This document shows, piece after piece, positions 1,954-62,398 of a stretch of 64,000 nt of DNA (its first letter is position 1; every line of letters starts with the position of its first letter). The translations under genes and the position numbers were made by a program. Source of the DNA: Gammaproteobacteria bacterium (GTDB taxonomy: Bacteria; Pseudomonadota; Gammaproteobacteria; Steroidobacterales; Foliamicaceae); the NCBI GenBank assembly GCA_028821145.1, contig JAPPHC010000021.1, positions 366 to 64,365 of the forward strand. Direction: 5' to 3'. The notes under the pieces were generated by a model. That model saw only the letters and a list, made by a program, of their open reading frames with translations. It was not told the origin of the DNA and did not search any database.

Positions 1954-4668
1954 TCAGGACCCATTCAGGTGGTCGCGTATCTGCCGAAGCAGGTTGACCT
2001 GGTGCGCCCGGTCCGCATCGTCGAACGTGGTCGCCAGGAACACCGCGACCAGATCGTGCTCCTGATTCACGTAGATCAACTGTCCGAGTCCGCCCGACGC
2101 AAGCAGTTCGCCCTCGGAGTTGTCCAGCACGCGGAACTGGTTATGGTAGAAGACCGCTGTTCCGAACCGGGCCAGTTCCTCTTCGTCGTTCATTGCCTGA
2201 CGAACGCCGTCATTGCCCGCGATCGTCCGCCGGATCCACGACCGGGGAACGATCTGCCGGCCGAGGAAATGCCCGTCGCCTTCGATCACGAGTCCGAGCC
2301 GGGCAAGATCGCGCAAGGCGGCGCCTATCCCGGCGCTTGCGAATCCATGACCGGCAGGATCGACAATGACGATGGCGTCGCGCTCGGCACCCAGCCTGGA
2401 CCAGAGCTTCTCCGCCAGGACCTCCTGCCAGTTGCGCCGGTAGGCGCGCGAGATCGACCAGGCGACGATCTCCGTATTCACAGGCGAGTAGAAGAAACTT
2501 CTGCCGTGTTCGCCATTCGCAGGAACCGTGGCGGCCAGCTCCAGCGTATTGCGATACGGAAATTCCTCGAAGCGGCGATGGAATCCTCCCGCCATGAAGT
2601 TGAGGAGCCGATAGGAACGCGGATCGTCCCAGCTCATCGGTGCCTCCACGCCCAACGCCATATCGAGGGCGTGCTGCAGACTGGCGTTCGCCACGCCGGC
2701 CCCCGCCAGTTCGGGCAAGACGTCGCCGAGAGGCCGCTCAAGGTCCAGGCGGCCTTCCGCCTGGGCGATTCCGGCGAGCAGCCCGACGAACGACTTGGAC
2801 ACCGAATTGAGTTGATGGCGCGCATCCGGCGCAAAGCCGTTGTAGTAGAGCTCGGCCAGGATCGCACCCTCACGGACCAGGATGAAGCCGTCCGTGCCGA
2901 TCGCGGCCAGGATCTCCTTCAGTGGCGCGGGTTCACCGTTTTTTCCGGCGAATGAAGCCGTCGCGAGCGTGCAGTCGCCATAGGGAAGTGCGCTGACGGG
3001 CCCTTCGCCGCGGCTGATGGGATCGACTCTCAGAATCTTCGACACGTTCTGGTGTGACCACAGCACCTGTTCGTAGTCCCGGGCCCAGGCGAGTCCGTCC
3101 GTAACGATCCGGTCCGGTGCGACCGGCACGCCCCGCATGTAGTGCGATCGGTTCGTGGGTTCGAGTCGTTCCGGCCCGCAAGTCGCGGCCTGCGGCTTGG
3201 TGGCGCTTCGATCCCGCCCTGAGCTTGCCTCCGCCTCGTGGGAGACGCATGAAGTCATCCTGACGCTTGGCGGCGACTCCTGTCGCCGACACTCCCACGA
3301 GGCGGAGGCAAGCTCAGGGCTTCCGGTGGCGTGGCGCCGTTCGAGCGATGCGTCGATTTGCCGGATCAGATCGACCTGAAAATTGCGCAACGGCCTGGAC
3401 GGGGTCACCGCCAGAAACACGGCGACGACATTCGACTCCATGTTCACGTAGATGCGTTGCCCCATGTGCCCCTGGGCGACGAACTCGCCGCGCTCGCCGT
3501 TCAGCACCCTGAAATGGTTGCGGTAGAAGGCGACGTGGGGCCGCTTCGCCGCTTCCTCGGAAGCCTGCCAGGCGGCCAGCGCCCCGGCGTCGCCCGCGCG
3601 CACGTCAAGCAACCAGTCCGCGGGCAGGATCTGCTCGCCGTTCAAACGGCCTTCCTGCTCCAGCATCAGGCCGAAGCGCGCGAAATCGCGAAGCGTGGCG
3701 CTGAATCCGGCCGTGGCGAAACCGTGCCCTCCGGGGTCGACCGTGATCAGAGCGTCATGCTCGGCGCCCAGCCTGGACCAGATGCGCTCGGCGAACGCCT
3801 CCTGCCAGTTCCTTCCTTCCAGCCTCGAGATGATCCAGCCGAGCGTTTCGGTGTTGCCCGGGTTGTACAGGCCGGCTTCGCCATGCCTTCCGGCCTTCTC
3901 CACCGACTGCAGAAACTCGAGCGTGTTCGGATAAGGAAAATCGGCGGGCCGCGACTGAAAACCACCGGCTTTGGAATTGAGATCCACCTGTGAGGTGGGA
4001 TCCGCCCGGTCGTGATTCCAGACCACGTTCGTGGTCATATCCAGTACCTGGCGAATGGTCGCGTCGCCGTAACCGGAACCCGCCAGTTCCGGCAGGTAAT
4101 GCGCGACCGTCTGGGCCAGGTCCACGCGGCCTTCGTGAACCAGGATGCCCATCAGCGAGCCCACCAGCGACTTGGTGACCGAGAACCCGATGTGGCGGCG
4201 GGTCGGCCCGAAACCGTTGAAGTAGACCTCGGTCTGCACGACGCCGTCTTTCAGAAGAATGAACCCGTCGATTCCCATGCCCTTGAGAATCTGCTGCAGC
4301 GGCGCGCGGTTCGAATCCGGCGCCGTGAACGACTGCTGCAGCAGACCGGTCCATTCGTAGGCCAGCGGTAGAACCGGCCCGGTGCCCCGGCTGACAAATT
4401 CCGTCGGCAGGATCTTGCTTATGTTCTGGAAGGACCACTTGCCCTTTTCCGGGTCGAGCGCCCAGGAGTGATCGCTGTCAATGAGCCCGTCGGGCGGCGG
4501 CGGAAATCCGCGCATGTAATCCGTCTGGTACTCGCGCTCGACGATCACGTACGGCGGATCGCCAGGCGGGTCTTCCCGAGGGACTTCGCAAGAGGCCAGC
4601 GGCAAGGCCGCGCCGATCAGCAAGGCGATCCCGGCGCCGACGCTCTTGCCGTATGTGTCAGGCCGCAT
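1954..4668 (-). CDS. Tandem two-domain serine hydrolase, beta-lactamase class C / NylB-like, probable lipoprotein
   Basis: 904 aa; lipobox-like LPLASC; two homologous domains, each with YMRG-P-P, SxxK (FSVTKS; NSVSKS), Y-x-x-x-NTE and IWSRLGAE/LWSRLGAE motifs. Confidence 0.85.
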   Translation of the reverse strand: MRPDTYGKSVGAGIALLIGAALPLASCEVPREDPPGDPPYVIVEREYQTDYMRGFPPPPDGLIDSDHSWALDPEKGKWSFQNISKILPTEFVSRGTGPVLPLAYEWTGLLQQSFTAPDSNRAPLQQILKGMGIDGFILLKDGVVQTEVYFNGFGPTRRHIGFSVTKSLVGSLMGILVHEGRVDLAQTVAHYLPELAGSGYGDATIRQVLDMTTNVVWNHDRADPTSQVDLNSKAGGFQSRPADFPYPNTLEFLQSVEKAGRHGEAGLYNPGNTETLGWIISRLEGRNWQEAFAERIWSRLGAEHDALITVDPGGHGFATAGFSATLRDFARFGLMLEQEGRLNGEQILPADWLLDVRAGDAGALAAWQASEEAAKRPHVAFYRNHFRVLNGERGEFVAQGHMGQRIYVNMESNVVAVFLAVTPSRPLRNFQVDLIRQIDASLERRHATGSPELASASWECRRQESPPSVRMTSCVSHEAEASSGRDRSATKPQAATCGPERLEPTNRSHYMRGVPVAPDRIVTDGLAWARDYEQVLWSHQNVSKILRVDPISRGEGPVSALPYGDCTLATASFAGKNGEPAPLKEILAAIGTDGFILVREGAILAELYYNGFAPDARHQLNSVSKSFVGLLAGIAQAEGRLDLERPLGDVLPELAGAGVANASLQHALDMALGVEAPMSWDDPRSYRLLNFMAGGFHRRFEEFPYRNTLELAATVPANGEHGRSFFYSPVNTEIVAWSISRAYRRNWQEVLAEKLWSRLGAERDAIVIVDPAGHGFASAGIGAALRDLARLGLVIEGDGHFLGRQIVPRSWIRRTIAGNDGVRQAMNDEEELARFGTAVFYHNQFRVLDNSEGELLASGGLGQLIYVNQEHDLVAVFLATTFDDADRAHQVNLLRQIRDHLNGS
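3216..3320 (-). repeat. Palindromic element copy 1 (type A core), inside the hydrolase interdomain linker
   Basis: Perfect 29-bp inverted arms GCCCTGAGCTTGCCTCCGCCTCGTGGGAG (3216-3244 / 3292-3320); 47-nt core, on the minus strand TGTCGGCGACAGGAGTCGCCGCCAAGCGTCAGGATGACTTCATGCGT. Confidence 0.9.
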
Positions 4669-4701
4669 TGTCCTGGTGCCGTGTCACGGCTGCATTGTCG
4701 C

Positions 4702-4741
4702 AAAAAAAGCGGGTACGGCGACCTTGCATCGCCGTACCCGC
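4702..4741 (-). terminator. Rho-independent terminator of the TonB receptor gene
   Basis: 13-bp stem GCGGGTACGGCGA/TCGCCGTACCCGC followed by T7 on the minus strand, 17 nt past the stop. Confidence 0.85.
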
Positions 4742-4758
4742 CGTTTACGAATGTAGCC

Positions 4759-7020: not shown

Positions 7021-7041
7021 GATTTTGTCCCCAATAGCGTT

Positions 7042-7067
7042 TTGGATTATTCTAATGCAAAATCCAA
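7042..7067. promoter_or_regulatory. Candidate operator in the AT-rich divergent TBDR/GntR promoter
   Basis: TTGGATT-N12-AATCCAA inverted repeat. Confidence 0.4.
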
Positions 7068-7155
7068 TCCTTACACAATAGAAGCGAATTGGTACACTGA
7101 ACTTTGTATTATCTTGCCAATCGGCTCAATTCATGAATGGTGCTAGTATTCCGGC

Positions 7156-8070: not shown

Positions 8071-8088
8071 CGGGAAACGCCGGCTAAA

Positions 8089-8187
8089 GCCCTTCGTTTG
8101 TCCCCCTCCTCGTGGGAGCGTTGGAGCAGGACAGCGAGAATCGAGCCAGGATGGCGCCTCCAACGAGGAGGGGGACGAACGAAGGGC
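8089..8187 (+). repeat. Palindromic element copy 2 (type B core), between convergent GntR and tctA
   Basis: 30-bp arms 8089-8118 / 8158-8187 (2 mismatches); core CGTTGGAGCAGGACAGCGAGAATCGAGCCAGGATGGCGC. Confidence 0.9.
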
Positions 8188-8194
8188 GGAAGGG

Positions 8195-9697
8195 TTAGCG
8201 GCGGAGTGCGCGTAGCCGGACCAGGGCGGCCGCCGCGAAGATCGCTGCCACTACCGCGGTCAACGCCAGCGAGATCGGCCGGGTGATGAAGATCCGCAGG
8301 CTCCCGTCTCCGATCAGCAGAGACTGCAGGAAAGCGTTCTCCGCCATGCCTCCCAGCACGACGGCAAGAACCGTCGCAGCCGGGGAATAACCGAACCGCT
8401 TCATGCCGAAACCAAGCAGGCCCGTCGCGAGCAGGATCCACGTTTCGATCATGCTGGAATGAAGCGCGAACGTCCCGACAATGCACAGCGTCACGATCAC
8501 CGGCACGACCAGGCGATAGGGCACGTCGAGAAACTTGATGAACAGCGGAATGGCCACCACGCTCATCACTACCAGCATCAGGTTGCCCAGGTACATGCTG
8601 CCGATCAGACCCCAGACGAAGTCCGGGTTGTCGACGATGAGCATCGGTCCCGGCTGCAGGCCCCACATCAGCAGCGCGCCGAGCAGGACCGCCGTCGCCC
8701 CCGAGCCCGGGATTCCGAGAGAAATCAGCGGCACCATTGCCCCGGCGGAGGCCGCATTGTTGGCCGCTTCGGGAGCCACCAGGCCGCGGATGTCGCCCTT
8801 GCCGAATTCCCCGGGGTCCCTGGCCACTCTCTTCTCGACCGAATAGGCGAGAATCGAACCTATCGTGGCACCGGAGCCCGGCAGCACACCTGCGATGAAA
8901 CCGATCAAGGATCCGCGCGCGAACGTGAAGCGCGAAATCCGGAAGTCCCCGGCCCGCGGCCAGAACGCCCTGGAAAAAATGGTCACGCTGATGCGTTTCG
9001 CCGCCTTTTTGTGTTCGCCGGTGTAGATGCAGTTCAGGAGTTCTCCGATCCCGAACAGCCCGATGGCAACCGGAACGAAATAGATGCCGTCTATCAGTTC
9101 CGGCGATCCGAACGTGAACCGCTGCGCGCCGCTGATGACGTCCACGCCGACGGTTGATATGGCGAACCCAAAAAGCGCGGAGATGATGCCCTTGAGCAGG
9201 CTGTCGCCCATCAGCGTAGCCAGCAGCAGCAGCCCCAGGAAAACAATGAGGAAGTACTCCGAAGGGCCGAATGACGCGGCGAAACTCGAGAGCGCGGGCG
9301 CGAACGCGCAAATCAGGACGACGCCGACCGCGCCCCCGACAAAAGAGGCAACCGCCTGCATCACGAGCGCCGGCCCGGCCCGGCCGGCCTGGGTCATGGG
9401 ATAACCGTCGAGCGTCGAAGCCACGGTGGCGGACTCGCCCGGGGTGTTGATCAGAATCGAAGTGATGGTCCCGCCGTACATGGCCCCGTAGTAGATGCCG
9501 GCCAGCAGGATGATCCCCGTCGTGGGTTCCAGCCCCAGGGTCATCGGTATCAGGATCGCGATTCCCGCGGCAGGCCCGAATCCGGGAAACAGGCCGACCA
9601 GCATTCCCACGCACACGCCCACAACGAGGAAGACCAGGTTCTCGAGCGACAAGGCCAGAGCGAGGCCCGACGCAAGATTGGCAAAGAGGTCTTCCAT
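8195..9697 (-). CDS. tctA: Tripartite tricarboxylate transporter large permease
   Basis: Motifs GIYYGAMYGG, NTPGE...STLDGYPM, APEAANNA, LGIPGS. Confidence 0.95.
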   Translation of the reverse strand: MEDLFANLASGLALALSLENLVFLVVGVCVGMLVGLFPGFGPAAGIAILIPMTLGLEPTTGIILLAGIYYGAMYGGTITSILINTPGESATVASTLDGYPMTQAGRAGPALVMQAVASFVGGAVGVVLICAFAPALSSFAASFGPSEYFLIVFLGLLLLATLMGDSLLKGIISALFGFAISTVGVDVISGAQRFTFGSPELIDGIYFVPVAIGLFGIGELLNCIYTGEHKKAAKRISVTIFSRAFWPRAGDFRISRFTFARGSLIGFIAGVLPGSGATIGSILAYSVEKRVARDPGEFGKGDIRGLVAPEAANNAASAGAMVPLISLGIPGSGATAVLLGALLMWGLQPGPMLIVDNPDFVWGLIGSMYLGNLMLVVMSVVAIPLFIKFLDVPYRLVVPVIVTLCIVGTFALHSSMIETWILLATGLLGFGMKRFGYSPAATVLAVVLGGMAENAFLQSLLIGDGSLRIFITRPISLALTAVVAAIFAAAALVRLRALRR

Positions 9698-24589: not shown

Positions 24590-24595
24590 CAGTTT

Positions 24596-24705
24596 CGCCG
24601 GCTGCTGACCCCTGCCTGCCGGGAGTGTCGGAGCCAGGGATGGCGACGCCAAGCTCCATGGATGGATTCATGCGGCTCCCGGCAGGCAGGGGTCAGCAGC
24701 CGGCG
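24596..24705 (+). repeat. Palindromic element copy 3 (type A core), between convergent genes
   Basis: Perfect 30-bp arms CGCCGGCTGCTGACCCCTGCCTGCCGGGAG (24596-24625 / 24676-24705); core TGTCGGAGCCAGGGATGGCGACGCCAAGCTCCATGGATGGATTCATGCGG. Confidence 0.92.
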
Positions 24706-24734
24706 CGAGAGTTCGTCAGTTCGAGTAACGGAAT

Positions 24735-26477
24735 CTAGAGGAGGGGGCCGGGGTCGTCGGGGCCCATCATCGCTTCGCGCAGCGCCGGCAGCGGCGCGTT
24801 GCCGAGCGACAGCAGCTGCTCGTGAAAGTCCTTCCAGGCCGCGCGCCCGCCCCGGTCCGCGGTCCAGTCCTCGCGCATCTTCACGATGATGAGCTTGCCC
24901 AGCGTATAGACGAAGTAGTCGGGATCGTAGGTGCCCCTGAGCGCCTGCTGCTGCGCGTTGCCCGGATCCAGGTAGGCCAGTTCCGCGAACATCCGCTGCG
25001 AGGTCTCGACGTCCATGCCCTCCACGTGCAAGCCGATGGATGACAGGAAGCGCACGTCGCGCATCAGCGCGTCGAGGATCTGACCGACCCTGAGCAGCGG
25101 CTTTCCTTCGCCCAGTCCCGCTTCCTGCATCAGTTCCTCGGTGTAATGGGCCCAGCCCTCGCTGAGCATGGCGTTCCAGAAGATCTTGCCCATCCGGTTG
25201 GCGGAGCGCTTGATGTAGAGCGAATGCAGGAAATGCCCGGGCCAGACTTCATGCACCGAGGTGTTGAGCAGGTCGGCTTCGCCGGGCACGTACTGCCGCT
25301 GCACTTCGGGCGGCCATTCCGGGTCCGGGCCGGCGATGTAGTAGATGGCGGGCAGGCCTTCCTCGTAGGCGCCGGGAATCTCGATGTAGGCGGAATTGGT
25401 GCGCCGGTAGGCGGGCGCCTCCGCCACGAAGGCGGCCTCGTCGCTGGGAATGCCGACGATGTCCGCCTGGACCAGGAACTCCCTGAGTTCGGGCAACTGT
25501 TCGTTGGCGCGTGCCACGGCGCCCTGTTCGGGCTTGTCGTCGCGCACCATGGCGGCGCATTCGGCGATCGTGATTTCCGGATCGACCAGCTTGCAGGTCG
25601 TGCGCAGGAGCTCCAGGTTGCGCGCCAGGTCTGCCTGCGCCACGCCCTTGAGCGTCTTCCAGTCCAGGTCGATCCGGTAACGGCGCCAGAGCAGCTCCCG
25701 GTAGCGTTCCTCCCCGAGGGCGAAGTCGCCGCTCGCATCCTCGAGGCGCAGCTCCAGCCAGGTCTCGACTTCGCGCAGGGCCTGCACGGCGGGCGCCAGC
25801 GCTTCGGCAAACGCGGCCTGCAGGTCCTCGTCCTCGACATCGGCGAACAGGCCGGGCGCGTCGCCCTCGAGATGCGACGCCAGTCCGCCGAAGTTGACCA
25901 GCGCGGTGCGAACGAACGGCCGGGCAAAAGGCGGCTGAAGCGTGCCGCGCATCTGCTCCAGATAAGCCGGCACCTTCTGCAGGTGGGCGGTCAGGGCCGC
26001 CAGCCGCTCGTCCCTGGGTGCGTATTCGCGCGACACATAGACGCTGGGGCTCAGGCGCCCCGCGTACCAGGCCGGGTTGCGCAGGTGATACTCCGCCACC
26101 TCCACGCTGAACAGCATGCCCTCGATGGAGGAAACGAGATGCCGGCGCTCCAGGTCCTGTTCCGGACTCAGGGTATCGGCGGAAAACTCCTCCTGCGCCC
26201 TTCGTGCGTACCGCCGCAGCATGTCGCCGCGCTCGCGGATAGCCCGCGCGCTTACGTCCTGAAGCTGCCCGTCGAATTCGTGCCGGCCGGCCCACACGGC
26301 GCGCGTAGGCTCGGCGGCGAACAGGTCCTCGATGAACTCCCCGGTGAATCGTTGCCACCCGGATTCGGCAATGGCCACCTGCTCCTCCTCCGGCGCTTCT
26401 CCGCCGCATCCCGACATCGCGCCGGCCGCCGCCGCCAGGGCGGCAATCAGGCCAACGGAAGTTTCGCGCAGGTTCAT
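24735..26477 (-). CDS. DUF885 family lipoprotein (putative metallopeptidase)
   Basis: Lipobox MSGC; HEVWPGHFLH, EGWAHYTE, YTLGKL, DFHEQLL. Confidence 0.88.
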   Translation of the reverse strand: MNLRETSVGLIAALAAAAGAMSGCGGEAPEEEQVAIAESGWQRFTGEFIEDLFAAEPTRAVWAGRHEFDGQLQDVSARAIRERGDMLRRYARRAQEEFSADTLSPEQDLERRHLVSSIEGMLFSVEVAEYHLRNPAWYAGRLSPSVYVSREYAPRDERLAALTAHLQKVPAYLEQMRGTLQPPFARPFVRTALVNFGGLASHLEGDAPGLFADVEDEDLQAAFAEALAPAVQALREVETWLELRLEDASGDFALGEERYRELLWRRYRIDLDWKTLKGVAQADLARNLELLRTTCKLVDPEITIAECAAMVRDDKPEQGAVARANEQLPELREFLVQADIVGIPSDEAAFVAEAPAYRRTNSAYIEIPGAYEEGLPAIYYIAGPDPEWPPEVQRQYVPGEADLLNTSVHEVWPGHFLHSLYIKRSANRMGKIFWNAMLSEGWAHYTEELMQEAGLGEGKPLLRVGQILDALMRDVRFLSSIGLHVEGMDVETSQRMFAELAYLDPGNAQQQALRGTYDPDYFVYTLGKLIIVKMREDWTADRGGRAAWKDFHEQLLSLGNAPLPALREAMMGPDDPGPLL

Positions 26478-26531: not shown

Positions 26532-26978
26532 CTAGTCCTCTTCCTCGAACCGGAATTCCTGATGGCAGTTGCGACAGGCGTCGGCCAGCCGTCTCAGCGA
26601 CTGCACCATGAACTCACGGTCTCCCGATCCGGCCGCGGCCACCAGGTTGCGGCCCTCGCGTTCGGCCGCCTCGGCCCTGTTCAGAAACTGCTCGGGCCTT
26701 TGCCATATACCCGGCAGGGCCGAGGTGTCGCCTTCGTCAGATCCCGGAGGAAACAGCGAACTGACGAGTTGCGCGTTCAGCCCCAACGAAGTGGCCTGGG
26801 TTTCGACGTGACGCTCCTCCAGCTCCAGGCCGCCGGCCAGCAGTTCCGTCAGCGCCGAGAGGTGCGCCGCCATGCTCAGCATGACGTCCTTGCGGTAGTC
26901 GATCATGCCCTGTTCGTCCGCCGAGGCGACGGCCAGCAGAACTGCGGCCCCGATGGCTGCCGCAAACCCTCGGGGCAT
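26532..26978 (-). CDS. Cytochrome c' / c556 (class II)
   Basis: Signal peptide, YRKDVM, LFPPGS, ALPGIW, C-terminal CRNCHQEFR. Confidence 0.9.
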   Translation of the reverse strand: MPRGFAAAIGAAVLLAVASADEQGMIDYRKDVMLSMAAHLSALTELLAGGLELEERHVETQATSLGLNAQLVSSLFPPGSDEGDTSALPGIWQRPEQFLNRAEAAEREGRNLVAAAGSGDREFMVQSLRRLADACRNCHQEFRFEEED

Positions 26979-35219: not shown

Positions 35220-35291
35220 TATTCGCAGCGAGGTCCGGGCGGGTCGGTCTGGCATAGACTGAGGCGAGCGCAGCCTTGAGGGCGGGAAAGC

Positions 35292-37073
<1,782 letters not shown>

Positions 37074-37077: not shown

Positions 37078-37149
37078 GGAGCGAGGGCGTCTCGCCCTCG
37101 AAATCAGCCAGCGCTTTGTGCACTACCGAGGGCGAGACGCCCTCGCTCC
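37078..37149. repeat. REP doublet (REPIN-like), GGAG type
   Basis: GGAGCGAGGGCGTCTCGCCCTCG (37078-37100) and its exact reverse complement (37127-37149), 26-nt spacer. Confidence 0.85.
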
Positions 37150-41469: not shown

Positions 41470-41481
41470 CGCTTCGATCCC

Positions 41482-41581
41482 GCCCTTCTTTTGCCCGCCT
41501 CCTCGTTGGAGACGCCATCCTGGCTCGATTCTCGCTGTCCCTGCTCCAACGCTCCCACGAGGAGGCGGGCAAAAGAAGGGC
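41482..41581 (-). repeat. Palindromic element copy 4 (type B core), between convergent apaH and ksgA
   Basis: 30-bp arms (1 mismatch) GCCCTTCTTTTGCCCGCCTCCTCGT(T/G)GGAG; minus-strand core nearly identical to copy 2; shares the flank GCTTCGATCCC with copy 1. Confidence 0.92.
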
Positions 41582-41589
41582 TTACGTAG

Positions 41590-42345
41590 CTAGTCGAGGT
41601 GTTCGGAGAGGCGGAGGTAGGCTTCTACGTCGATCTGCTCGGGGCGCTTGGTGGGGTCGATGCCGGCCGTGGTGATCTGCTCACGGTCGGCCAGGCCGCG
41701 CAGGGCGTTGGCGACGGTTTTGCGGCGCTGCGAGAAAGCCTGGCGCACGACGCGATCGAAGGTGTCGGGGCGGTGGATGCGGTAGCGTGAATCGGGCGTC
41801 AGCCTGACCACCATCGAATGCACCTTCGGGGGAGGCTCGAACGCAACCGGCGCAACCGAAAAGCACGGCTCGGCCCGGCAGCGGACCGCCGCCGTGACGG
41901 ACAGGCGGCCGTAGCGTCGGCTGCCCGGTGGCGCGCACAGCCGCTCGGCCACTTCGCGCTGCAGCATGACCGTCATGTCGCGGAACCCGGCCGCGCTCTC
42001 AAGCAGGCGGAACAGCAGGGGCGTGCTCAGGTAATAGGGCAGATTGCCGATCAGGCGCAGGTCCGGGATCTTGAGCGCCGCGTAATCGAACTCGAGTGCG
42101 TCCGCCAGGTGCACGCTCAGACGCTCGTGGGGAAAACTCGCGCGCAGTCCCTGCGCCAGCGCCGGATCGATCTCCACCGCGTGAACGATCGCCCCCCTTG
42201 ACAGCAAAGGACCGGTCAGCGCGCCGCGGCCCGGACCGATCTCGACGAAATGTTCGCCGGCGCCGGGCGCCGTCGTCGTGACGATTTGCTGAATTACCGA
42301 GGCGTCGGTGAGAAAGTGCTGCCCCAGCCGGGGACGCCGCTTCAT
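41590..42345 (-). CDS. ksgA: 16S rRNA dimethyltransferase KsgA (RsmA)
   Basis: LGQHFL, EIGPGRG, GNLPYY, PPPKVHS. Confidence 0.96.
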   Translation of the reverse strand: MKRRPRLGQHFLTDASVIQQIVTTTAPGAGEHFVEIGPGRGALTGPLLSRGAIVHAVEIDPALAQGLRASFPHERLSVHLADALEFDYAALKIPDLRLIGNLPYYLSTPLLFRLLESAAGFRDMTVMLQREVAERLCAPPGSRRYGRLSVTAAVRCRAEPCFSVAPVAFEPPPKVHSMVVRLTPDSRYRIHRPDTFDRVVRQAFSQRRKTVANALRGLADREQITTAGIDPTKRPEQIDVEAYLRLSEHLD

Positions 42346-43340
42346 TGTTCCGGATGACCCGACCTGCGCCGCACCATGCGCGCGGCCGCCGCCACGGCCT
42401 GGACCAGGCTGCCTTCGTCGGCCTTCCCGGTGCCCGCGAGATCGAAAGCGGTGCCGTGGTCCACGGAGGTGCGGACGAACGGCAGGCCCAGCGTTACGTT
42501 CACCGCCTGGCCGAAGCCCGCGTGCTTGATGACCGGCAGGCCCTGGTCGTGGTACATCGCCAGCACTGCGTCCTGCCCGGCGAGATTGCCCCGCGTAAAG
42601 GCCGTGTCGGCCGGCCAGGGTCCGGTCACGCCCGGATCGCCGAATTCGGCAATCGCTCTCGCCACGACATCGCGATCCTCGGCGCCCAGTTCGCCATCCT
42701 CGCCGGCATGCGGATTGAGTCCGAGAACCGCCACCCGCGGTCTGCCTATTCCAAAATCGCGCTTCAGTCCCCGCACCAGCACGTCGAGAACGGCGCCCAG
42801 GCGCTCGCGGGTAACGGCCCCGGGCACTGCGCTCAACGGAATATGCGTCGTGGCCAGAGCCACCCTCAGCGGCGTGCGCCCGGGCCCCGTCTCGCCGGCC
42901 AGCAGCATGACCGGCATGGGCGCGCCGCTGAGCCGCGCCAGGTATTCCGTATGTCCCATGAAATCCAGGCCGGCCTTGCGCATGACCGCCTTGTTGACCG
43001 GTCCTGTCACGAGCGCATCGAACTCCCCGCTCAGGCACCCCTTCACGCCCCGCTCTATCGCCGCCAGCACGGCGGGTGCGTTGCGGGCGTCCGCCCGGCC
43101 CGCCCGGCACGGATGAGCGAGCGGCAGGGATGCGATGCTCAAGCCGGGTGCGCGGTCGCGGGACTCGTACGAACCGGCCGGAAAGTCGCGTTCCAGCAAT
43201 TCCGCGCGTTCGCGCAGCACGCGCGGGTCGGCGAGCAACACGATATCGAAGCAGCTCAGTTCACGGGCCGCCTTGATTACGATGTCCGGCCCGATTCCGG
43301 CCGGTTCGCCCACGCTGACCGCCAGTCTAGGGCCGCGCAT
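42342..43340 (-). CDS. pdxA: 4-hydroxythreonine-4-phosphate dehydrogenase
   Basis: GEPAGIGP, GHTE, GLNPHAGE, AMYHDQG, RTSVDHGTA. Confidence 0.96.
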   Translation of the reverse strand: MRGPRLAVSVGEPAGIGPDIVIKAARELSCFDIVLLADPRVLRERAELLERDFPAGSYESRDRAPGLSIASLPLAHPCRAGRADARNAPAVLAAIERGVKGCLSGEFDALVTGPVNKAVMRKAGLDFMGHTEYLARLSGAPMPVMLLAGETGPGRTPLRVALATTHIPLSAVPGAVTRERLGAVLDVLVRGLKRDFGIGRPRVAVLGLNPHAGEDGELGAEDRDVVARAIAEFGDPGVTGPWPADTAFTRGNLAGQDAVLAMYHDQGLPVIKHAGFGQAVNVTLGLPFVRTSVDHGTAFDLAGTGKADEGSLVQAVAAAARMVRRRSGHPEQ

Positions 43341-43358: not shown

Positions 43359-44786
43359 CTACTTCTTGTATTCCACGAAAGCCTCGGCCCGCAGCCGTTG
43401 CAGCCAAAGCTGGGTTTCCTCCTGCACCTTGCGCTCCCGCAAGGCCAGCGCGGCGCGCTGCCGGCGCACGTCCTCGCTCACGTCCTGCATGCGGGTTCCG
43501 GAACGTTGCGCAATATGCCATCCGAAGGAGCTGCGTATGGGTTCGCTGATCTCGTCGCCCTCAAGCTCCGCCACGCCGGCGGCGAATGCGGGATCGAGGT
43601 CCTCGGGAGACACCCATCCCAGCATGCCGCCCTCGGCGGCGGAACCGGGGTCGGCCGAGTAAGCTCGGGCCAGGGCGCCGAAGCTCTCACCGGCCAGGAT
43701 CTGCTCTCGAATTTCGGCAATCTCGTCTCGGGTCGCTCCGTCGTCGCGTATCTCGTTCGGCTGAAGCAGTATGTGCCTGAGTTCCCACTGCTCCTGAATA
43801 ATGGGGTCCCCGCCGCGTGTTTCGTCCAGGCGCACCACGTTCACTCCGCTGCCCGTCGTGATCAGCTCGGCCACGTCGCCGGGCTTGAGCTGAATGACAT
43901 GCGCGACGAATGCGGTGGGCAGCGCATTGCGTTTGCGCCAGCCCAGGCTGCCGCCCTGCAGCGCGTTCTGCGCCTCCGAATAGGCGATTGCCAGTTCGGC
44001 GAAGCTCTCCCCTTCCAGCACGCGCTGACGCAACCTCTCCGCACGCTCGCGGGCCGCTTCGCGCTGACCCGCGGTGGCGTTCAGCGGCGTGCCGATCAGA
44101 ATGTGCGACACCAGGTACTCCCGGTTGGCCTCCTCCCCGGCCTCGGCGCCGCGCAGGAAATCGTCCACTTCCCTGGGGTTGAGGAATACCCGGACGTCGC
44201 GCTGCCGGAGCGTGTCCAGTTCGATCTGCGCCCTCAGTTCCTCGCGGTAGCGGGCGTACTCGATGCCCTGCTCGGCCAGCACGTCCGGAAGATCGCTCAG
44301 TTCGACCCCGTTCTGCTGGGCCACGAAGCCGAGCGCCCGGTTGACCTGCTCGTCGGAAATCTCGATGCCGAGACGCGTGGCGCGCTGCAGTTGTATTTCC
44401 CGCAGGACCAGCCGCTCCAGCACTTGCGATTCGAGCACTGCCGAAGGCGGTGACCTGAGGCCTTGGGCGCGAATGTTGGCACGTACGCCGGCAAGTTCCC
44501 GGTCCAGTTCGCTGGTCAGGACAACGCCGTCATTGACGACAGCGGCGATGCCGTCCAGAAACTCGCCATCATCGCTGAGCTGCGCCCCCACCGGCCCCGC
44601 AACCACCACCAGACACACCAGCACCAGCGCTCCGCGCCACACGCGCGGGTGAGCCTTTTCTTTCCCCCGGTCCTTCCGGGAGTGTTGGAGGCAGGGATGC
44701 CGGAACCAAGCTCCATGGATGGATTCATGCGTCTCCCGGAAGGGCCGGGGGAAAGAAAAGGCGTTGCCGGCAGATGCGTGAATCAC
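43359..44786 (-). CDS. surA: Chaperone SurA (start uncertain: GTG 44786 or GTG 44642)
   Basis: DGIAAVVND, two parvulin domains (SHILI, RHILL, GG-LGW, S-FGWH); position between lptD and pdxA. Confidence 0.93.
   Translation of the reverse strand: MIHASAGNAFSFPRPFRETHESIHGAWFRHPCLQHSRKDRGKEKAHPRVWRGALVLVCLVVVAGPVGAQLSDDGEFLDGIAAVVNDGVVLTSELDRELAGVRANIRAQGLRSPPSAVLESQVLERLVLREIQLQRATRLGIEISDEQVNRALGFVAQQNGVELSDLPDVLAEQGIEYARYREELRAQIELDTLRQRDVRVFLNPREVDDFLRGAEAGEEANREYLVSHILIGTPLNATAGQREAARERAERLRQRVLEGESFAELAIAYSEAQNALQGGSLGWRKRNALPTAFVAHVIQLKPGDVAELITTGSGVNVVRLDETRGGDPIIQEQWELRHILLQPNEIRDDGATRDEIAEIREQILAGESFGALARAYSADPGSAAEGGMLGWVSPEDLDPAFAAGVAELEGDEISEPIRSSFGWHIAQRSGTRMQDVSEDVRRQRAALALRERKVQEETQLWLQRLRAEAFVEYKK
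44653..44762 (+). repeat. Palindromic element copy 5 (type A core), at the surA 5' end
   Basis: 30-bp arms GCCTTTTCTTTCCCCCGG(T/C)CCTTCCGGGAG; core TGTTGGAGGCAGGGATGCCGGAACCAAGCTCCATGGATGGATTCATGCGT. Confidence 0.92.
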
Positions 44787-47818: not shown

Positions 47819-48438
47819 AGGCGGGACAGCAGACGGGGCTGCAATTCGACCGCTGCGGCCGGGAGGCTGTCCGGGCCGCCAAGGCTCGCGAAATTGACCG
47901 CGTCGAGGCCCTCGAAGCCGCAGGGATTGATCCGCGAGAACGGACCCAGATCGGCGCAGACGTTCAGCGCCATGCCGTGATACGAGCACCCGCGCCGTAT
48001 GCGCAGGCCGATGGCGGCCAGCTTGGCGCCCGCCACGTATACGCCGGGCGCCCGGGGGCGGCGCGATGCCTCGATCCCGTAAGCCGCGGCGCAATCGATC
48101 ACCGAGTCTTCCAGGGCGCAGACCAGGGTCCGGGGCCCCAGCCCGGCGCGGCGCAGGGACACCAGCGGGTAAACCATCAACTGCCCGGGGCCGTGATAGG
48201 TGACCTGGCCGCCGCGATCGGACTGTTCCACGGGAATATCCCCGGGATCGAGGACATGGGAAGGTTCGGTCTTGACGCCCAGGGTGAAGACCGGCGGATG
48301 TTCGCAGAACCAGATCTCGTCGTGCGTGCAATCGCCGCGGTCGGCGGTAAACCGTTGCATGCGTTCGACGGCTTCCCTCCAGGGCAGGCGCCCCAGCCAC
48401 CTTATGCGTGCGGAATCGGCGCCGCCTACTCGAACCAC
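47752..48438 (-). CDS. lipB: Octanoyltransferase LipB
   Basis: EHPPVFTLG, RGGQVTYHGPGQ, KLAAIG, HGMALN, INPCG; GTG start inferred. Confidence 0.93.
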   Translation of the reverse strand: MVRVGGADSARIRWLGRLPWREAVERMQRFTADRGDCTHDEIWFCEHPPVFTLGVKTEPSHVLDPGDIPVEQSDRGGQVTYHGPGQLMVYPLVSLRRAGLGPRTLVCALEDSVIDCAAAYGIEASRRPRAPGVYVAGAKLAAIGLRIRRGCSYHGMALNVCADLGPFSRINPCGFEGLDAVNFASLGGPDSLPAAAVELQPRLLSRLYASSGRRRTASSRSTVPASAQ

Positions 48439-55685: not shown

Positions 55686-55706
55686 GGCGCTATCCCATCT
55701 GACCCC

Positions 55707-57193: not shown

Positions 57194-57208
57194 CCGGAAC
57201 GGACCTTC

Positions 57209-58687
57209 ATGATCGACTTTTCCCTGAGCGGTCTTCGACGCGCCCTGGACTCGGGCGACATCAGCAGCGTCGAACTCACGCAGGCATGCCTGGACCGCAT
57301 AGAGGAACGGAACCCCGAGCTGAACGCGTTCCTGACCGTGTGCGGCGAATCGGCGCTCGACGGGGCGCGCCGGGCCGATGCCGGCCGCGCGAACGGCGGG
57401 GCCCTGGCGGGGATACCCATAGCCCACAAGGACATATTCTGCACCCGGGGCGTGCGCACCACGGCCGGTTCGGGGATTCTGGACAACTTCGTTCCGCCCT
57501 ACGACGCCACCGTCGTGGAACGGCTGGCGGAAGCCGGCGCGTTGCTGATCGGCAAGACCAACATGGACGAATTCGCGATGGGCTCGTCCAACGAGACGAG
57601 CTACGCCGGTCCGGTGCGCAATCCCTGGAACCTTTCCCGCTCGCCCGGAGGCTCGTCGGGCGGATCGGCCGCCGCCGTGGCCGCCGGCCTGGTTCCGGCG
57701 GCGACCGGCACGGACACGGGCGGGTCGGTGCGCCAGCCGGCGGCCCTGTGCGGGCTGACTGGCTTCCGGCCCAGCTACGGGCGGGTGTCGCGCTACGGAA
57801 TGATCGCGTTCGCCTCCAGCCTGGACCAGGCCGGCTCGATTACGCGCACGGCCGAGGACGCGGCCATGCTGCTGGACAGCATGGCCGGCCACGATCCGCG
57901 CGACTCGACCTGCGCGGAGCGCGGCGGCGAGGACTATTCGGGCCCCCTGCAGGGCCTGAAGGGCAAGGCCCTCGAGGGCGTGCGCGTGGGCGTCGTCAGG
58001 GAGTTCATGGACGAGGGGCTGGACGCCCGCTGCCGGCAGGTGTTCGTGGACAACATGGATACGCTGCGCGGCCTGGGGGCGGTCATCAGCGAAGTTTCGC
58101 TGCCGCGGCTGCCGCTCTCGGTTCCGGTCTATTACGTCGTAGCGCCCGCCGAATGCTCGTCCAACCTGTCGCGCTTCGACGGCGTGCGATTCGGTCTGCG
58201 CGAAGCGGGCGCCGACAGTCTGGAGGAGCTGTATACGAGGACCCGCCGGGCCGGCTTCGGCGAGGAGGTCCGGCGCCGCATACTGGTGGGCGGCTGGGTG
58301 CTGTCCAAGGGTTATTTCGACGCCTATTACCTTCAGGCCCAGCGCGTGCGCCGGCTGGTCGCGGCCGATTTCAGCGAGGCCTTCGAAACGGTGGACCTGC
58401 TGGCGGGACCGACCGCGCCCGCTCCGGCCTTCGGGATCGGCGAGAAAATCGACGACCCGATCCAGATGTACTTGAACGATGTCTATACCATCGGCGCCAG
58501 CCTGGCCGGAATCCCCGCCATTTCGATTCCCGCCGGTACGGTGGACGGGCTGCCGGTGGGATTGCAGCTCATGGGCCGGCCGTTTGCCGAAACGGACGTG
58601 TTGCGCGCCGCGCACGCCTACCAGCTGGAGACCGACTGGCACCGTCTGTGGCCGCCCGGCATGTCGGCGCCCGTCGGCTCGGCCTGA
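57209..58687 (+). CDS. gatA: Amidotransferase subunit A
   Basis: KTNMDEFAMGSS, GGSSGGS, GTDTGGSVRQPA. Confidence 0.97.
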   Translation: MIDFSLSGLRRALDSGDISSVELTQACLDRIEERNPELNAFLTVCGESALDGARRADAGRANGGALAGIPIAHKDIFCTRGVRTTAGSGILDNFVPPYDATVVERLAEAGALLIGKTNMDEFAMGSSNETSYAGPVRNPWNLSRSPGGSSGGSAAAVAAGLVPAATGTDTGGSVRQPAALCGLTGFRPSYGRVSRYGMIAFASSLDQAGSITRTAEDAAMLLDSMAGHDPRDSTCAERGGEDYSGPLQGLKGKALEGVRVGVVREFMDEGLDARCRQVFVDNMDTLRGLGAVISEVSLPRLPLSVPVYYVVAPAECSSNLSRFDGVRFGLREAGADSLEELYTRTRRAGFGEEVRRRILVGGWVLSKGYFDAYYLQAQRVRRLVAADFSEAFETVDLLAGPTAPAPAFGIGEKIDDPIQMYLNDVYTIGASLAGIPAISIPAGTVDGLPVGLQLMGRPFAETDVLRAAHAYQLETDWHRLWPPGMSAPVGSA

Positions 58688-58701
58688 CAGAGGATCGCGC
58701 G

Positions 58702-60129
<1,428 letters not shown>

Positions 60130-60135
60130 CGGTAT

Positions 60136-60840
60136 ATGAGCACGTCCGCCATCCGTACGCGCGAGTTGACGCGGACCTACCGTATGGGAACCGATACGGT
60201 GGTGGCGCTGTGCGACGTCAGCCTGGCGGTGCGGCCCAACGAGTACCTGGCCGTCACGGGCCCGTCCGGATCGGGAAAATCGACGCTGATGAACCTGCTC
60301 GGCTGCCTGGAGACGCCCACCGCGGGAGACTATTGGCTGAACGGCGTGCACGTGTCGCGCATGAGCGGCCGGGAGCTGGCCAGGGTGCGCAACCGGCAGG
60401 TGGGTTTCGTGTTCCAGACCTTCAATCTGCTGGAGCGCTGCAGCGCCGTGCAGAATGTGGAGGCGCCCCTGATCTATGCCCGGATGCGCCGCCGCGAACG
60501 CCTGAAGCGGGCGACCGAGGCCCTGGAACGGGTCGGGCTGGCCGACCGCCTCGCGCACCGGCCCAGCCAGCTCTCGGGCGGGCAGCGGCAAAGAGTGGCG
60601 ATCGCGCGCGCGCTGGTTACGCGCCCGAGCATCTTGCTGGCGGACGAACCGACGGGTAATCTGGACTCCGCGACCGGAGCGGAAGTCCTGACATTGTTCG
60701 ATTCCCTGCACAGTGACGGTCACACGCTGATCGTCGTTACCCATGACGCCGGCATCGCCGCGCGCGCCCAGCGCAGGATCGAGATGCTGGACGGCCGGAT
60801 CAAGGCCGACACCGGCGCCTCCGGTGAAGCCCGTGCTTGA
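60136..60840 (+). CDS. ABC ATPase, LolD/MacB family
   Basis: [40 protein letters not shown]; stop codon lies within repeat copy 6. Confidence 0.93.
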
Positions 60841-62398
60841 TTCCCCCTTTGCGTGGAGCGTCGGCGGCAGGACAGCCGCCGCCGAGCCCCATGGACGGGT
60901 TCATGCGTCTCCACGCAAAGGGGGAATCAAGCACGGGCGAGGGACCACGAGAACGCTGTGGCGCGGCGGTGCGGCTTTCGGGCTGATGCTGGTCATGGCC
61001 GGTTGCGCCGAGGAACCGGCGCCCGAACCGCAGGCCTACGACCAGGCGCCCGTGGAGCTTCGCGACATCCGCGTGTTCGTGGAGGCCGCCGGCGCGGTCG
61101 AACCGCTGCGCACCGTCGAACTGAAATCCAAGGCTTCCGGCGAGATACTCGCAATCAACGCCGAGAACGGCGACCCGGTTGAGCGTTCGGCCCTGCTGGT
61201 GCGGATCGACAAGCGCATCCCCACCAACAACCTGGCCCAGGCCGAGGCGGCGCTGAAAGCCGCCGAGTCGCGCCAGTCCATCGCCAAGTTGCAGATGGAG
61301 CGGGCGGAGAGGCTGGTGGCCGACAACACCATCACCGACAGCGAGTTCGAAGAGACGGCGCTGGCGCTCTCGGAAGCCGAGGCGCAACTGGTTCGCGCCC
61401 GCGTGGACGTGGAAAACGCCCACATCGCGCTGGACGACACCGACGTGCTGGCGCCGATCGACGGAACCATCATCGAGCGCAATGTCGAGCCCGGACAGGT
61501 CATTTCATCGCCCACCCAGGACGTGGGGGGCGGCACATTGCTGTTGCGCATGGCCGATCTGGGCCGGGTCCTGGTGCGCACCCGCGTGGACGAGACCGAC
61601 ATCGGCAAGATCAATGCCGGAATGCAGGCGCAGGTCAGGGTGGCGGCCTATCCCGCCCGCGAATTCACCGGTTACGTGGAGAAGATCGAGCCGCTGGCCG
61701 TAGTCGAACAGAACGTCACGATGTTCTCGGTCCTGATCCTGCTCGACAACCCCGACTCGCTGCTGCTGCCGGGCATGAACGCCGAGGTTCAGATCAAGAT
61801 CGCCGAGGAACTCGAAGCGCCCGCCGTGCCGATGGCGGCGCTGCGCACGATCGACGACATCGAGGCGACGGCGCACATGCTGAACTGGCCTTACAGCAAT
61901 CTTCACGACGCGGTCATGAAGGAGCGGGAAGAGACCGGCGACGGCGGGCAGGCGGATCCGGCGGCAACCTCTGGATTCGATTCCGGGGATTTCGCGCGCC
62001 AGCAGAATCGGACCGGGCAGCGCCCGCAGCTCAGCCCCGAACAGCGCCAGGCCATGCGCAGGGCCATGGGCGACGCGATGCGCAATCAGCCGCGGCGCGT
62101 GGGACGGCCCTGGACCGGCGGCGCGAGACCGGGCGGCGGTCCCGGACGCCGCTTCCTGCAGCAGGGGCCGGATTACGACTTCAGGGCGGAATACTGGGTG
62201 CTGGTCATGCGCGACGACGGACCGGCGCCGGCCTGGGTTCGCACGGGCCTGAGCGACTTCGAGTACTCGGTCGTGCTCGCGGGACTCGAGGAGAACGACG
62301 AGGTGCTGCTGCTGCCCAGCGCGGGACTCTACGAATCGCAGTCCAACCTGCGCAACTGGATGCGCCGACGCGCCGGCGGCCTCCCCGGCATCGGCTAG
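60824..62398 (+). CDS. Periplasmic adaptor (MacA-like) lipoprotein
   Basis: Lipobox MAGC; VELKSKASG, APIDGTI, VDETDIG, LLPGMNA; GTG 60824 start inferred. Confidence 0.88.
   Translation: MKPVLDSPFAWSVGGRTAAAEPHGRVHASPRKGGIKHGRGTTRTLWRGGAAFGLMLVMAGCAEEPAPEPQAYDQAPVELRDIRVFVEAAGAVEPLRTVELKSKASGEILAINAENGDPVERSALLVRIDKRIPTNNLAQAEAALKAAESRQSIAKLQMERAERLVADNTITDSEFEETALALSEAEAQLVRARVDVENAHIALDDTDVLAPIDGTIIERNVEPGQVISSPTQDVGGGTLLLRMADLGRVLVRTRVDETDIGKINAGMQAQVRVAAYPAREFTGYVEKIEPLAVVEQNVTMFSVLILLDNPDSLLLPGMNAEVQIKIAEELEAPAVPMAALRTIDDIEATAHMLNWPYSNLHDAVMKEREETGDGGQADPAATSGFDSGDFARQQNRTGQRPQLSPEQRQAMRRAMGDAMRNQPRRVGRPWTGGARPGGGPGRRFLQQGPDYDFRAEYWVLVMRDDGPAPAWVRTGLSDFEYSVVLAGLEENDEVLLLPSAGLYESQSNLRNWMRRRAGGLPGIG
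60829..60938 (+). repeat. Palindromic element copy 6 (type A core), at the ATPase/adaptor junction
   Basis: Perfect 30-bp arms GCCCGTGCTTGATTCCCCCTTTGCGTGGAG (60829-60858 / 60909-60938); core CGTCGGCGGCAGGACAGCCGCCGCCGAGCCCCATGGACGGGTTCATGCGT. Confidence 0.92.

Follow-up and report, generated by a model that had tools for sequence, protein, structure and literature searches.

The window, a stretch of 64,000 nt from contig JAPPHC010000021.1 of an uncultured gammaproteobacterium (assembly GCA_028821145.1, family Foliamicaceae), carries six copies of a dispersed, non-coding, hairpin-forming element in which the terminal arms vary from copy to copy and the enclosed core is conserved. On balance, the six hairpins appear to be a lineage-specific, GC-rich branch of the TwoAYGGAY type, with arms that would be templated at the DNA level, a core that would be selected by a protein, and a mode of spread that would not involve RAYT, IS110 or TnpB enzymes. 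New here are the states in which orthologous sites were found (filled, empty, scarred or occupied by another subtype), the inversion of the core in place at two sites, the 96% Watson-Crick pairing of the arms with a wobble share of 0.6%, the excess of compensated over uncompensated arm changes in orthologous copies (16 versus 8), and the lack of any tracking of abundance by RAYT, IS110 and TnpB.

The assembly of the window, designated G000, comprises 2.22 Mb in 83 contigs with 65% GC and is 66% complete; other genomes of the genus bear designations of the same form. The covariance model R1 was built from 23 G000 copies found by a hairpin scan. Positions without a contig name are those of the window, and the copies in it are named c1 to c6.

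Structure of the element

A scan of the window for inverted repeats (pairs at least 22 nt long and at most 150 nt apart) returned nine pairs, the six longest of which are the six elements listed in the initial annotation. Their positions were confirmed, with arms of 29-30 nt that are 93-100% complementary within a copy. The hairpins stand as annotated; the ends of the element do not coincide with them, as alignments with flanks revealed ~12 conserved nt beyond the hairpin on each side. The full element of ~124 nt consists of a 12-nt 5' extension, a basal stem of 29-31 bp, a core of 39-50 nt, the other half of the stem and a 12-nt 3' extension. No seventh copy was found on the contig of the window with the model built from 23 genome copies, which recovered the six. 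The strand given below is that of the GGA-rich core, and complementarity and loop length are from the window scan.

c1: 3204..3332, minus strand, core subtype A; hairpin 3216-3320 with arms 3216-3244 and 3292-3320 (29 nt, 100% complementary) and core 3245-3291 (loop 47 nt); 3' extension CGCTTCGATCCC (plus-strand reading) at 3204-3215, 5' side at 3321-3332
c2: 8074..8200, plus strand, core subtype B; hairpin 8089-8187 with arms 8089-8118 and 8158-8187 (30 nt, 93% complementary) and core 8119-8157 (loop 39 nt); 5' extension ACGCCGGCTAAA at 8077-8088
c3: 24590..24736, plus strand, core subtype A; hairpin 24596-24705 with arms 24596-24625 and 24676-24705 (30 nt, 100% complementary) and core 24626-24675 (loop 50 nt); longer 3' tail
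c4: 41470..41589, minus strand, core subtype B; hairpin 41482-41581 with arms 41482-41511 and 41552-41581 (30 nt, 97% complementary) and core 41512-41551 (loop 40 nt); 3' extension CGCTTCGATCCC (plus-strand reading) at 41470-41481
c5: 44653..44762, plus strand, core subtype A; arms 44653-44682 and 44733-44762 (30 nt, 97% complementary) and core 44683-44732 (loop 50 nt)
c6: 60817..60950, plus strand, core subtype A; hairpin 60829-60938 with arms 60829-60858 and 60909-60938 (30 nt, 100% complementary) and core 60859-60908 (loop 50 nt); 5' extension GCCTCCGGTGAA at 60817-60828 and 3' extension GAGGGACCACGA at 60939-60950

The 5' extension reads GCGCCNGCTRAA or ..CCGTA and the 3' extension GAGGAAGCACGA or GGRATCGAAGCG. 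They occur as matched pairs irrespective of the core subtype, GCGCCNGCTRAA with GAGGAAGCACGA and ..CCGTA with GGRATCGAAGCG (in short form, GCTRAA with GAGGAAGC and CCGTA with GGRATCGAAGCG). Two core subtypes had been distinguished at the outset and both were recovered: subtype A, of 47-50 nt, ends in TTCATGCG, and subtype B, of 39-40 nt, ends in GGATGGCG. The two are mutually alignable and hybrids are present. A third subtype, C, has a loop of only 11-13 nt without GGA hairpins and shares the extensions and arms. Among 99 distinct elements from G000 and its relatives, the arms are 30 nt long in 52, 29 nt in 18, 31 nt in 10 and 32 nt in 9.

Mean pairwise identity is 86% in the core versus 55% in the arms for 45 copies with a 40-nt core, and 83% versus 44-46% for 17 copies with a 50-nt core; where two copies share the same 40-nt core (189 pairs), their arms are on average just 65% identical. 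The claim that the arms vary and the core is conserved is therefore upheld (83-86% versus 44-55%). In the 23-copy alignment 93.5% of stem cells are paired, versus 73.5 +/- 0.9% in 500 shuffles, none of which reaches the observed value, and pairing drops to 50-58% when the stem partners are slid by 1-3 columns. RNAalifold assigned 30 basal-stem pairs to this alignment, 23 of which have changed on both sides in a compensatory manner. These values bear out the description of the family as dispersed, non-coding and hairpin-forming, with strong covariation.

One strand of the core folds into two small hairpins with the loops AGGA, AGGGAU, AUGGAU or (C)AGGAU(G), the two GGA loops lying ~20-25 nt apart. 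The stems of both hairpins covary: GGCGAC/GTCGCC, GGCGGC/GCCGCC, GAAGGC/GCCTTC, CTGGGGC/GCCCCAG and CAACGGC/GCCGTTG were found in hairpin 1, and GTCA/TGAC, TCC/GGA, CCC/GGG and TAC/GTA in hairpin 2. Hairpin 2 retains its GGA triplet in 23/23 copies. Folded in isolation, the cores of 65 of the 99 elements form two or more loops that carry GGA, and the sense core folds more stably than the antisense in 51 of 61 distinct cores. About one third of the stems have a purine-purine mismatch at position 5 counted from the core (G.A in 17, A.G in 6 and A.A in 6 of 99); tandem G.A pairs are known from a TwoAYGGAY stem (PMC4333381, excerpt). Type B permits an alternative pairing, a perfect one, between the innermost 8 nt of the right arm and the 8 nt with which the core begins.

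Complementarity of the arms

Across the 99 distinct elements, 2850 of 2970 arm cells (96.0%) are Watson-Crick pairs. Wobble cells (G.T and T.G) number 17 (0.57%) versus 15 A.C and C.A cells, and since G.T is as rare as the non-isosteric A.C mismatch, wobble is not favoured on either strand. The other 88 non-Watson-Crick cells comprise 82 purine-purine and 6 pyrimidine-pyrimidine cells, mostly at stem positions 5, 6 and 30. Flips between GC and CG are frequent in the arms.

Orthologous copies were compared at four sites covering 116 stem positions, among which 93 were invariant, 16 compensated and 8 broken on one side; two double non-pairing changes and one restoring change were also found. A fifth site, at ~60130, was left out of this count, because indels misaligned its arms; the copy of G003 at this site differs in its arms and could be a replacement. 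At c6 both steps of a compensation are visible: a T-to-G change in the left arm is common to G006 and G012, and the matching change in the right arm is present in G012 alone. Between the G006 and G012 copies at ~60130, two one-base homopolymer indels are mirrored in both arms. The complementarity within a copy is thus maintained far beyond what independent mutation would leave, as had been supposed (96.0% Watson-Crick; 16 compensated versus 8 uncompensated positions).

Template switching is predicted to leave multiple compensatory changes, stem extension and loop inversion as footprints (PMC8794818, excerpt). Compensation, extension of the stem (57 bp, in G008) and inversion of the loop were all seen, which favours templating of one arm by the other at the DNA level. 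Judged by these footprints, template switching has an even chance of being the mechanism that keeps the arms complementary.

Relationship to TwoAYGGAY and other described elements

A search with Rfam at the gathering threshold gave 0 matches in the window. Over the whole of G000, RF01731 (TwoAYGGAY) gave two matches only, which score 30.7 and 27.5 bits where the threshold is 43. Both are type-A copies, two of the at least 37 loci in the genome, and both are matched over the full length (model 1-168) on the GGA (sense) strand. The alignment comprises a basal stem of ~25-30 pairs, a first hairpin ...GCCAUGGAUGGC..., an AAG linker and a second hairpin ...UCCAUGGAUGGA...; both aligned hairpin loops read CAUGGAUG, after which the stem closes. 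Within the genus, 18 of 22 genomes have RF01731 matches at E <= 0.1, the best with 38.7 bits, versus 0 of 14 controls. The copies on contigs C79 and C27 have AUGGAU in both loops, and most type-A copies have AUGGAU in hairpin 2 and AGGGAU, AGGA or AGGACA in hairpin 1. Rfam matches by E-value to plant and animal microRNA precursors were dismissed as generic matches of long hairpins, restricted to the stem and found on both strands.

A TwoAYGGAY-like architecture is highly probable. The likeness may be due to homology or to convergence, and the family is perhaps best described as a variant of the TwoAYGGAY type, not as a certified member. A match to a described family, which the initial annotation had named as a ground for refutation, exists in RF01731 only below the threshold, full-length as it is; a family of similar kind is nevertheless on record, and it is nearer than the Rickettsia RPE and Caulobacter CIR repeats, which had been named as the closest precedents.

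TwoAYGGAY was reportedly described by Weinberg et al. in 2010. As an orphan motif, it occurs in gut metagenomes, Gammaproteobacteria and Clostridiales (PMC2864571, excerpt); its loops match the CsrA-binding motif, its outer stem is poorly conserved, and it has been proposed to be a CsrA-binding small RNA (PMC4333381, excerpt). According to the accessible part of a preprint, TwoAYGGAY of Pseudomonas has median copy numbers of 11-23 and up to 202 copies, is strongly strain-variable, forms divergent doublets in 68.4% and looks like a mobile element (Li et al. 2026, 10.64898/2026.09.22.753630). The family of the genus resembles TwoAYGGAY in its long, poorly conserved basal stem around two hairpins with AYGGAY-type loops and a short purine linker, in being multi-copy with extreme variation in copy number within the Gammaproteobacteria and with CsrA binding proposed, and in its divergent doublets (12/18 in G015, set against the 68.4% in the accessible part of the preprint). 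It differs in being GC-rich and only ~124 nt long, in its conserved 12-nt terminal extensions, in having one subtype without the two hairpins, and in the loops of most copies, which are AGGGA(Y), AGGA or CAGGAUG and not AYGGAY. Pseudomonas TwoAYGGAY has, according to the preprint, extra hairpins, a 3' pseudoknot, arrays of 5-6-mers upstream and REP (repetitive extragenic palindromic) arrays downstream, none of which is present in the genus family. The literature search found no description in print of the element of this lineage, and figures S26-S29 of the preprint (hairpin-less variants and elongated stems of the Bacillota type) may show closer variants. Nothing relevant was found in the literature on a CsrA-linked repeat element or on MITEs (miniature inverted-repeat transposable elements) of sponge-associated Gammaproteobacteria.

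The clan of RF01731 in Rfam is CL00106, which we take to be the Csr/Rsm clan. The loops of the core presumably fit the CsrA/RsmE site, and the CAGGAUG of type B the consensus of the CsrB repeats. CsrA is encoded in 21 of 22 genomes of the genus, including the element-free G017. In G000 the model RF00195 (RsmY/RsmZ search) gave one 14-bit match at chance level elsewhere and RF00166 none. From its motifs, CsrA is a tentative candidate for the partner of the core. The small RNAs CsrB, RsmY and RsmZ, which act as sponges in the Csr/Rsm system, likewise display GGA in hairpin loops; the element is unlike them in having two sites per unit, copies that number from dozens to hundreds and are dispersed in either orientation, and no promoter or terminator of its own at c4 and c5.

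REPINs are long repeat hairpins in which compensatory changes occur (Bertels and Rainey 2011, PMC3116915, excerpt). As far as that excerpt goes, the element shares with them a hairpin of ~100-110 nt, intergenic position, multiple copies, two-sided compensatory changes and differences between genomes. The distribution of conservation is opposite: in REPINs the ends (REPs) are conserved and the middle varies, whereas the present element keeps its middle and varies in its arms. A GTAG-type REP is not present in the genus family, and 17 of 22 genomes, the richest among them, lack RAYT.

The Correia elements are bacterial MITEs, small, with inverted ends, located at gene ends and polymorphic in presence or absence. 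All these features recur in the present element. Unlike those of a MITE, its terminal repeats are not conserved between copies (44-55% identity in the arms), and no parent insertion sequence with matching ends was found in G000; the initial annotation was right in describing variable arms around a conserved core (83-86%) as the reverse of the situation in ordinary MITEs. The attC sites of integrons have R''/R' core sites (RYYYAAC ... GTTRRRY) at the ends of a palindrome that follows a cassette open reading frame in an array. Identity with attC was rejected, as by inspection the element ends in GCC...GGC plus extensions and its copies are single, dispersed and located at the ends of housekeeping genes.

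Turnover at orthologous sites

The sites were compared by synteny with five to seven genomes of the genus, with flanks 73-99% identical. The 64-kb syntenic block contains ten sites at which at least one of six genomes has an element, and none is filled in all six.

c1 site: identical copy in G003; 3' extension and 11-13 nt of one arm in G013 and G006
c2 site: 127-nt block missing in G006, where the stops overlap as CTAG; subtype A with different arms in G013
c3 site: 147-nt block absent in G003, G016 and G006, where convergent stops abut (TGA|TCA or TGA|TTA); small hairpin of 29 nt in G013; unrelated 162-nt insert in G012
c4 site: subtype B in G000; subtype A with other arms in G003, G005, G013 and G006; two elements in G012 and G015; perfect 57-bp arms in G008; empty in G016, where the stops overlap as TTAG; short spacers and no element in seven more distant genomes
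c5 site: identical copy in G003; extra hairpin in the core in G005; empty in G006 and G016
c6 site: orthologous copies in G013, G006 and G012, whose cores are 100% identical while the arms have changed; left arm only in G003 and G016, by deletion between imperfect direct repeats of ~11 nt
Sites ~37700, ~40690, ~60130 and ~62397: empty in G000, filled in other genomes

The remnants of c1 in G013 and G006 join the far flank at a 4-nt microhomology and are two independent deletion scars. The three empty sites with abutting or overlapping convergent stops look like original states. The filled c2 site is bordered by TAGCGG on either side, which may be a target duplication or, equally, the microhomology of a deletion. 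Some elements are inserted beside or into other elements. At c5, G012 and G014 have arms and flanks unchanged and the core inverted (once turned round, it is identical at 48 of 50 nt by inspection); at ~40690, G012 and G013 share the same arms with the core in opposite orientation.

Real gain and loss of copies between relatives is very likely. The mobility suggested in the initial annotation agrees with the occurrence of filled, empty, scarred and subtype-swapped orthologous sites in close relatives, and empty orthologous sites, the lack of which would have spoken against it, are present.

Copy number, distribution and mobilising enzymes

Applied to G000, R1 gave at least 57 matches (best 150 of 875 candidates), corresponding to at least 37 distinct loci and 20 reverse-strand echoes; the further genomic copies that a covariance model had been expected to find thus exist. 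The loci include six type C copies and four whose core contains additional hairpins. A hairpin scan of G000 made without reference to the family (arms of at least 22 nt) gave 42 records, 31 of which belong to the TwoAYGGAY-like family. One spurious source of long inverted repeats is C20:725-899, a near-pure G run followed by its complement, possibly an assembly artefact.

R1 matched 20 of 21 other genomes of the genus versus two of 19 from other families of the order, the latter weakly; in a wider draw, 12 of 13 genomes of the genus were matched, and eight of 137 others had 1-5 weak matches each. A single genus of uncultured Gammaproteobacteria holds essentially the whole family, with widely varying copy number: G015 (complete, 2.5 Mb) has at least 144 distinct loci at E <= 1e-10 (best 150 of 1656 candidates), and the complete genome G017 has zero R1 matches. 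The exact 19-mer of the type-B core was found in public records mostly in metagenome-assembled genomes titled 'Gammaproteobacteria bacterium'; ~25 single matches in unrelated phyla are at chance level for 596 Gb by our own arithmetic.

The window encodes no mobilising enzyme, as the initial annotation had noted; the transposase acting in trans that it invoked remains an assumption. RAYT, IS110 and TnpB do not track the abundance of the element. The Y1 transposase/RAYT (PF01797, IS200 TnpA) is encoded in five of 22 genomes of the genus, all of them element-poor or incomplete, and was found neither in G000 (66% complete) nor in the element-rich G015, G008, G009, G012 and G013. IS110 occurs in 10 and TnpB in nine of the 22. 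The three families tested were rejected as mobilisers, since several of the most element-rich genomes lack all three and the element-poorest commonly have them. G000 contains no parent element with the same ends, and no solitary arms or arm pair enclosing a gene. Type C shares the extensions and arms, lacks the GGA hairpins and yet multiplies, which suggests that the extensions and the hairpin shape matter for spread and that the core is a separately selected module.

Genomic setting

The copies fill intergenic gaps at gene ends, directly after stop codons, notably where convergent genes abut. The 23 copies in G000 comprise nine in a convergent setting, six sense, five antisense co-directional and one divergent, with one at a contig end and one inside an open reading frame. 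For 62 loci in relatives the corresponding numbers are 23 convergent, 15 sense, 10 antisense, nine divergent and five incomplete; the convergent setting thus accounts for 23 of the 57 with both neighbours called. Close pairs are mostly divergent, with the 5' extensions 3-20 nt apart (9/9 in the named relatives). Among the loci listed for G015, the adjacent pairs (n=18) include 12 divergent, five tandem and one convergent, and 80 loci lie on the plus and 64 on the minus strand, with no clear switch along ten bins. This split is uninformative on a replication-strand bias, as it has no origin to be referred to and cores flip. At G015:C1:1729727-1730105 three elements stand head to tail without a spacer at a period of 126-127 nt, unlike the usual singles and divergent doublets.

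Within the window, c1 is open in frame and joins two tandem paralogs of the beta-lactamase family as an open reading frame of 904 aa. This fused PF00144 frame lies at 1954-4668 on the minus strand and is in the same state in G003; c1 is without the stop triplet that other copies have in the 5' extension. The gap between the convergent GntR-family and TctA genes is occupied by c2. Copy c4 lies between the convergent metallophosphoesterase gene and ksgA, that is, after ksgA. Copy c5 lies between lptD and surA, upstream of ksgA and antisense to the minus-strand row lptD-surA-(gene 42342-43313)-ksgA, and c6 supplies the TGA (60838-60840) that ends the upstream ABC-ATPase gene. The sequence scan found no promoter-like or terminator-like site at c4 or c5.

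Two type C copies in G000 are located at C35:8138-8227, between rpsU and dnaG, and at C35:12380-12469, directly after rpoD. An internal terminator lies between rpsU and dnaG in E. coli. Contig C35, with its four type C copies, was considered as a mobile island and rejected, as it is a housekeeping region with rpsU-dnaG-rpoD, glnS and dapD.

The summed contig depth of the c4 bin was raised in all four sequencing runs, at 97 versus ~5 in X1 and 64-177 versus ~9-25 in X2-X4. X1 is recorded as RNA and the kind of X2-X4 is not recorded; the contigs carry no information on transcription, strand or ends. As raised depth is expected for a repeat, no inference on expression was drawn.

Other inserts in the window

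A second, unrelated palindromic insert is located at 37078-37149, with perfect 23-nt arms GGAGCGAGGGCGTCTCGCCCTCG and a 26-nt loop; the site is without the insert in G003, G006 and G013. Similar GAGGGCG..CGCCCTC hairpins are found in G000 at C26:28180 and C35:17634-17858, and a 29-nt version stands at the c3 site in G013. At ~35230-35293, G003 has an insertion of 8.4 kb and G012 one of 1.5-1.6 kb relative to G000. The G012 insert was rejected as a mobiliser of the element, as its sequence reads as a putative toxin-antitoxin-like pair and a metallopeptidase-like fragment, not as an insertion sequence. At ~48405-48412, G013 has a 269-nt insert, absent in G000, that forms one near-perfect hairpin with arms of ~130 nt. 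A GC-rich insert of 92 nt at 26957-26971 is common to G016 and G006, is not in G000 and does not belong to the R1 family.

Interpretation

In the reading preferred here, the arms would stay Watson-Crick by DNA-level copying of one arm from the other. The likely process would be intramolecular template switching during replication of the palindrome, which would also explain inverted cores and lengthened arms. The core would be under sequence selection and recognised by a protein, with CsrA acting on RNA as the leading candidate, and spread would be independent of a RAYT, IS110 or TnpB enzyme.

Several observations weigh against this reading. No copy reaches the gathering score of 43 bits of RF01731 in any of the 22 genomes (best 38.7), and RF01731 matches only type A with AUGGAU loops, while type B (AGGGACA, CAGGAUG) and type C (no GGA) depart from AYGGAY. 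The multiplication of type C copies without GGA hairpins is a further such point. The core strand is unbiased with respect to transcription (21 sense to 15 antisense overall; z ~1 by our own arithmetic), which hardly favours an RNA function at each locus, and the RNA run X1, which exists as contigs only, gives no sign either way on transcription of the element. Differences between orthologues could be replacement by other copies instead of change in place; c4 is subtype B in G000 and subtype A in G003 despite 95% identical flanks. Two of the sites scored as empty are clearly deletion scars, so that absence is not always the state before insertion, and the comparison of four sites gave no consistent target duplication at c3, c4 and ~60130, c2 being ambiguous.

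A classical non-autonomous transposon of the MITE, REP or PATE type, moved by an enzyme that acts in trans on the single-stranded hairpin with its extensions and kept complementary by selection for transposability, is an unlikely alternative explanation. It would accord with the asymmetric 12-nt extensions, which are conserved and paired regardless of the core, and with type C, which multiplies with the same extensions and arms and another core. Presence or absence between relatives, elements beside or in other elements, and the lack of a consistent target duplication (as in insertion of the IS200/IS605 type) fit as well, and the hairpins of REPINs likewise have compensatory changes (PMC3116915, excerpt). 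The candidate enzymes, with Y1/RAYT in 5/22, IS110 in 10/22 and TnpB in 9/22 genomes, are nevertheless missing from element-rich genomes (G015, G008, G009, G012 or G006), neither a full-length parent nor solitary arms flanking a gene were found in G000, and transposability leaves the compensated changes, the mirrored indels at one locus and the inverted cores unexplained. Selection on an RNA helix, with the element as a structured regulatory RNA (a Csr/Rsm sponge or a module of the 3' untranslated region, UTR) and the DNA events incidental, is improbable. It would account for the two covarying hairpins with GGA loops ~20-25 nt apart, for the hairpin-2 GGA invariant in 23/23 copies and for the more stable sense core (51/61); TwoAYGGAY has been proposed as a CsrA-binding small RNA (PMC4333381, excerpt), CsrA is encoded in 21/22 genomes with RsmY and RsmZ not found in G000, and read-through would transcribe copies that directly follow stops. 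A selected helix should however tolerate G.U on the functional strand, whereas wobble, at 0.57%, is no commoner than A.C (17 versus 15). The lack of orientation bias (21:15), cores that flip in place, the lack of promoter-like or terminator-like sites at c4 and c5, the presence of CsrA in the element-free G017, and a copy number from 0 to at least 144, unlike that of a fixed regulator, also speak against it.

The element could finally be a passive structure at gene ends (a bidirectional transcription barrier, a protector of mRNA 3' ends or an RNase III site), spread by recombination and with no partner for the core; this is very improbable. The frequency of the convergent setting (23/57 in relatives, 9/23 in G000), the filling of the whole gap and the type C copies between rpsU and dnaG and after rpoD would suit such a role, and exonucleases would not pass a perfect, GC-rich stem of 30 bp. 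It would leave the conservation of the core (83-86%) beside drifting arms and the covarying GGA hairpins unexplained; no T-run follows the stem, no terminator was flagged at c4 and c5, and close relatives have empty sites, with the stops merely abutting, without visible harm. The reading as a TwoAYGGAY-type branch with templated arms and a selected core is therefore retained as the preferred one.

Implications

Since 2010 TwoAYGGAY has stood as an orphan RNA motif of wide occurrence. The genus offers a compact version of ~124 nt, and its many complete genomes, closely related to one another, allow individual events to be read off directly: insertion at abutting stops, deletion scars, compensated arms, mirrored indels and core inversion. 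This makes it possible to test DNA templating versus RNA selection of the stem, the need for a dedicated enzyme, and the binding of the GGA core by CsrA. Where a long hairpin covaries, the cause need not be selection on an RNA helix, a point of relevance to RNA-discovery pipelines. The repeat also breaks short-read assemblies, as at the contig ends C19:1-51 and C32:1-70 of G000 and at c2, where contigs of G003 end.

A bolder proposal, which is itself improbable, is that TwoAYGGAY-type elements are self-maintaining DNA palindromes without a transposase of their own, in which template switching would correct and lengthen the arms, flip the core and occasionally seed copies at gene junctions, and only the pair of CsrA-binding hairpins would be selected. 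If this were true, a genome with at least 100 copies would carry a distributed, evolvable CsrA sponge or regulon in its 3' UTRs, and the orientation of the core, switchable by inversion, would decide which of the neighbouring transcripts displays the sites.

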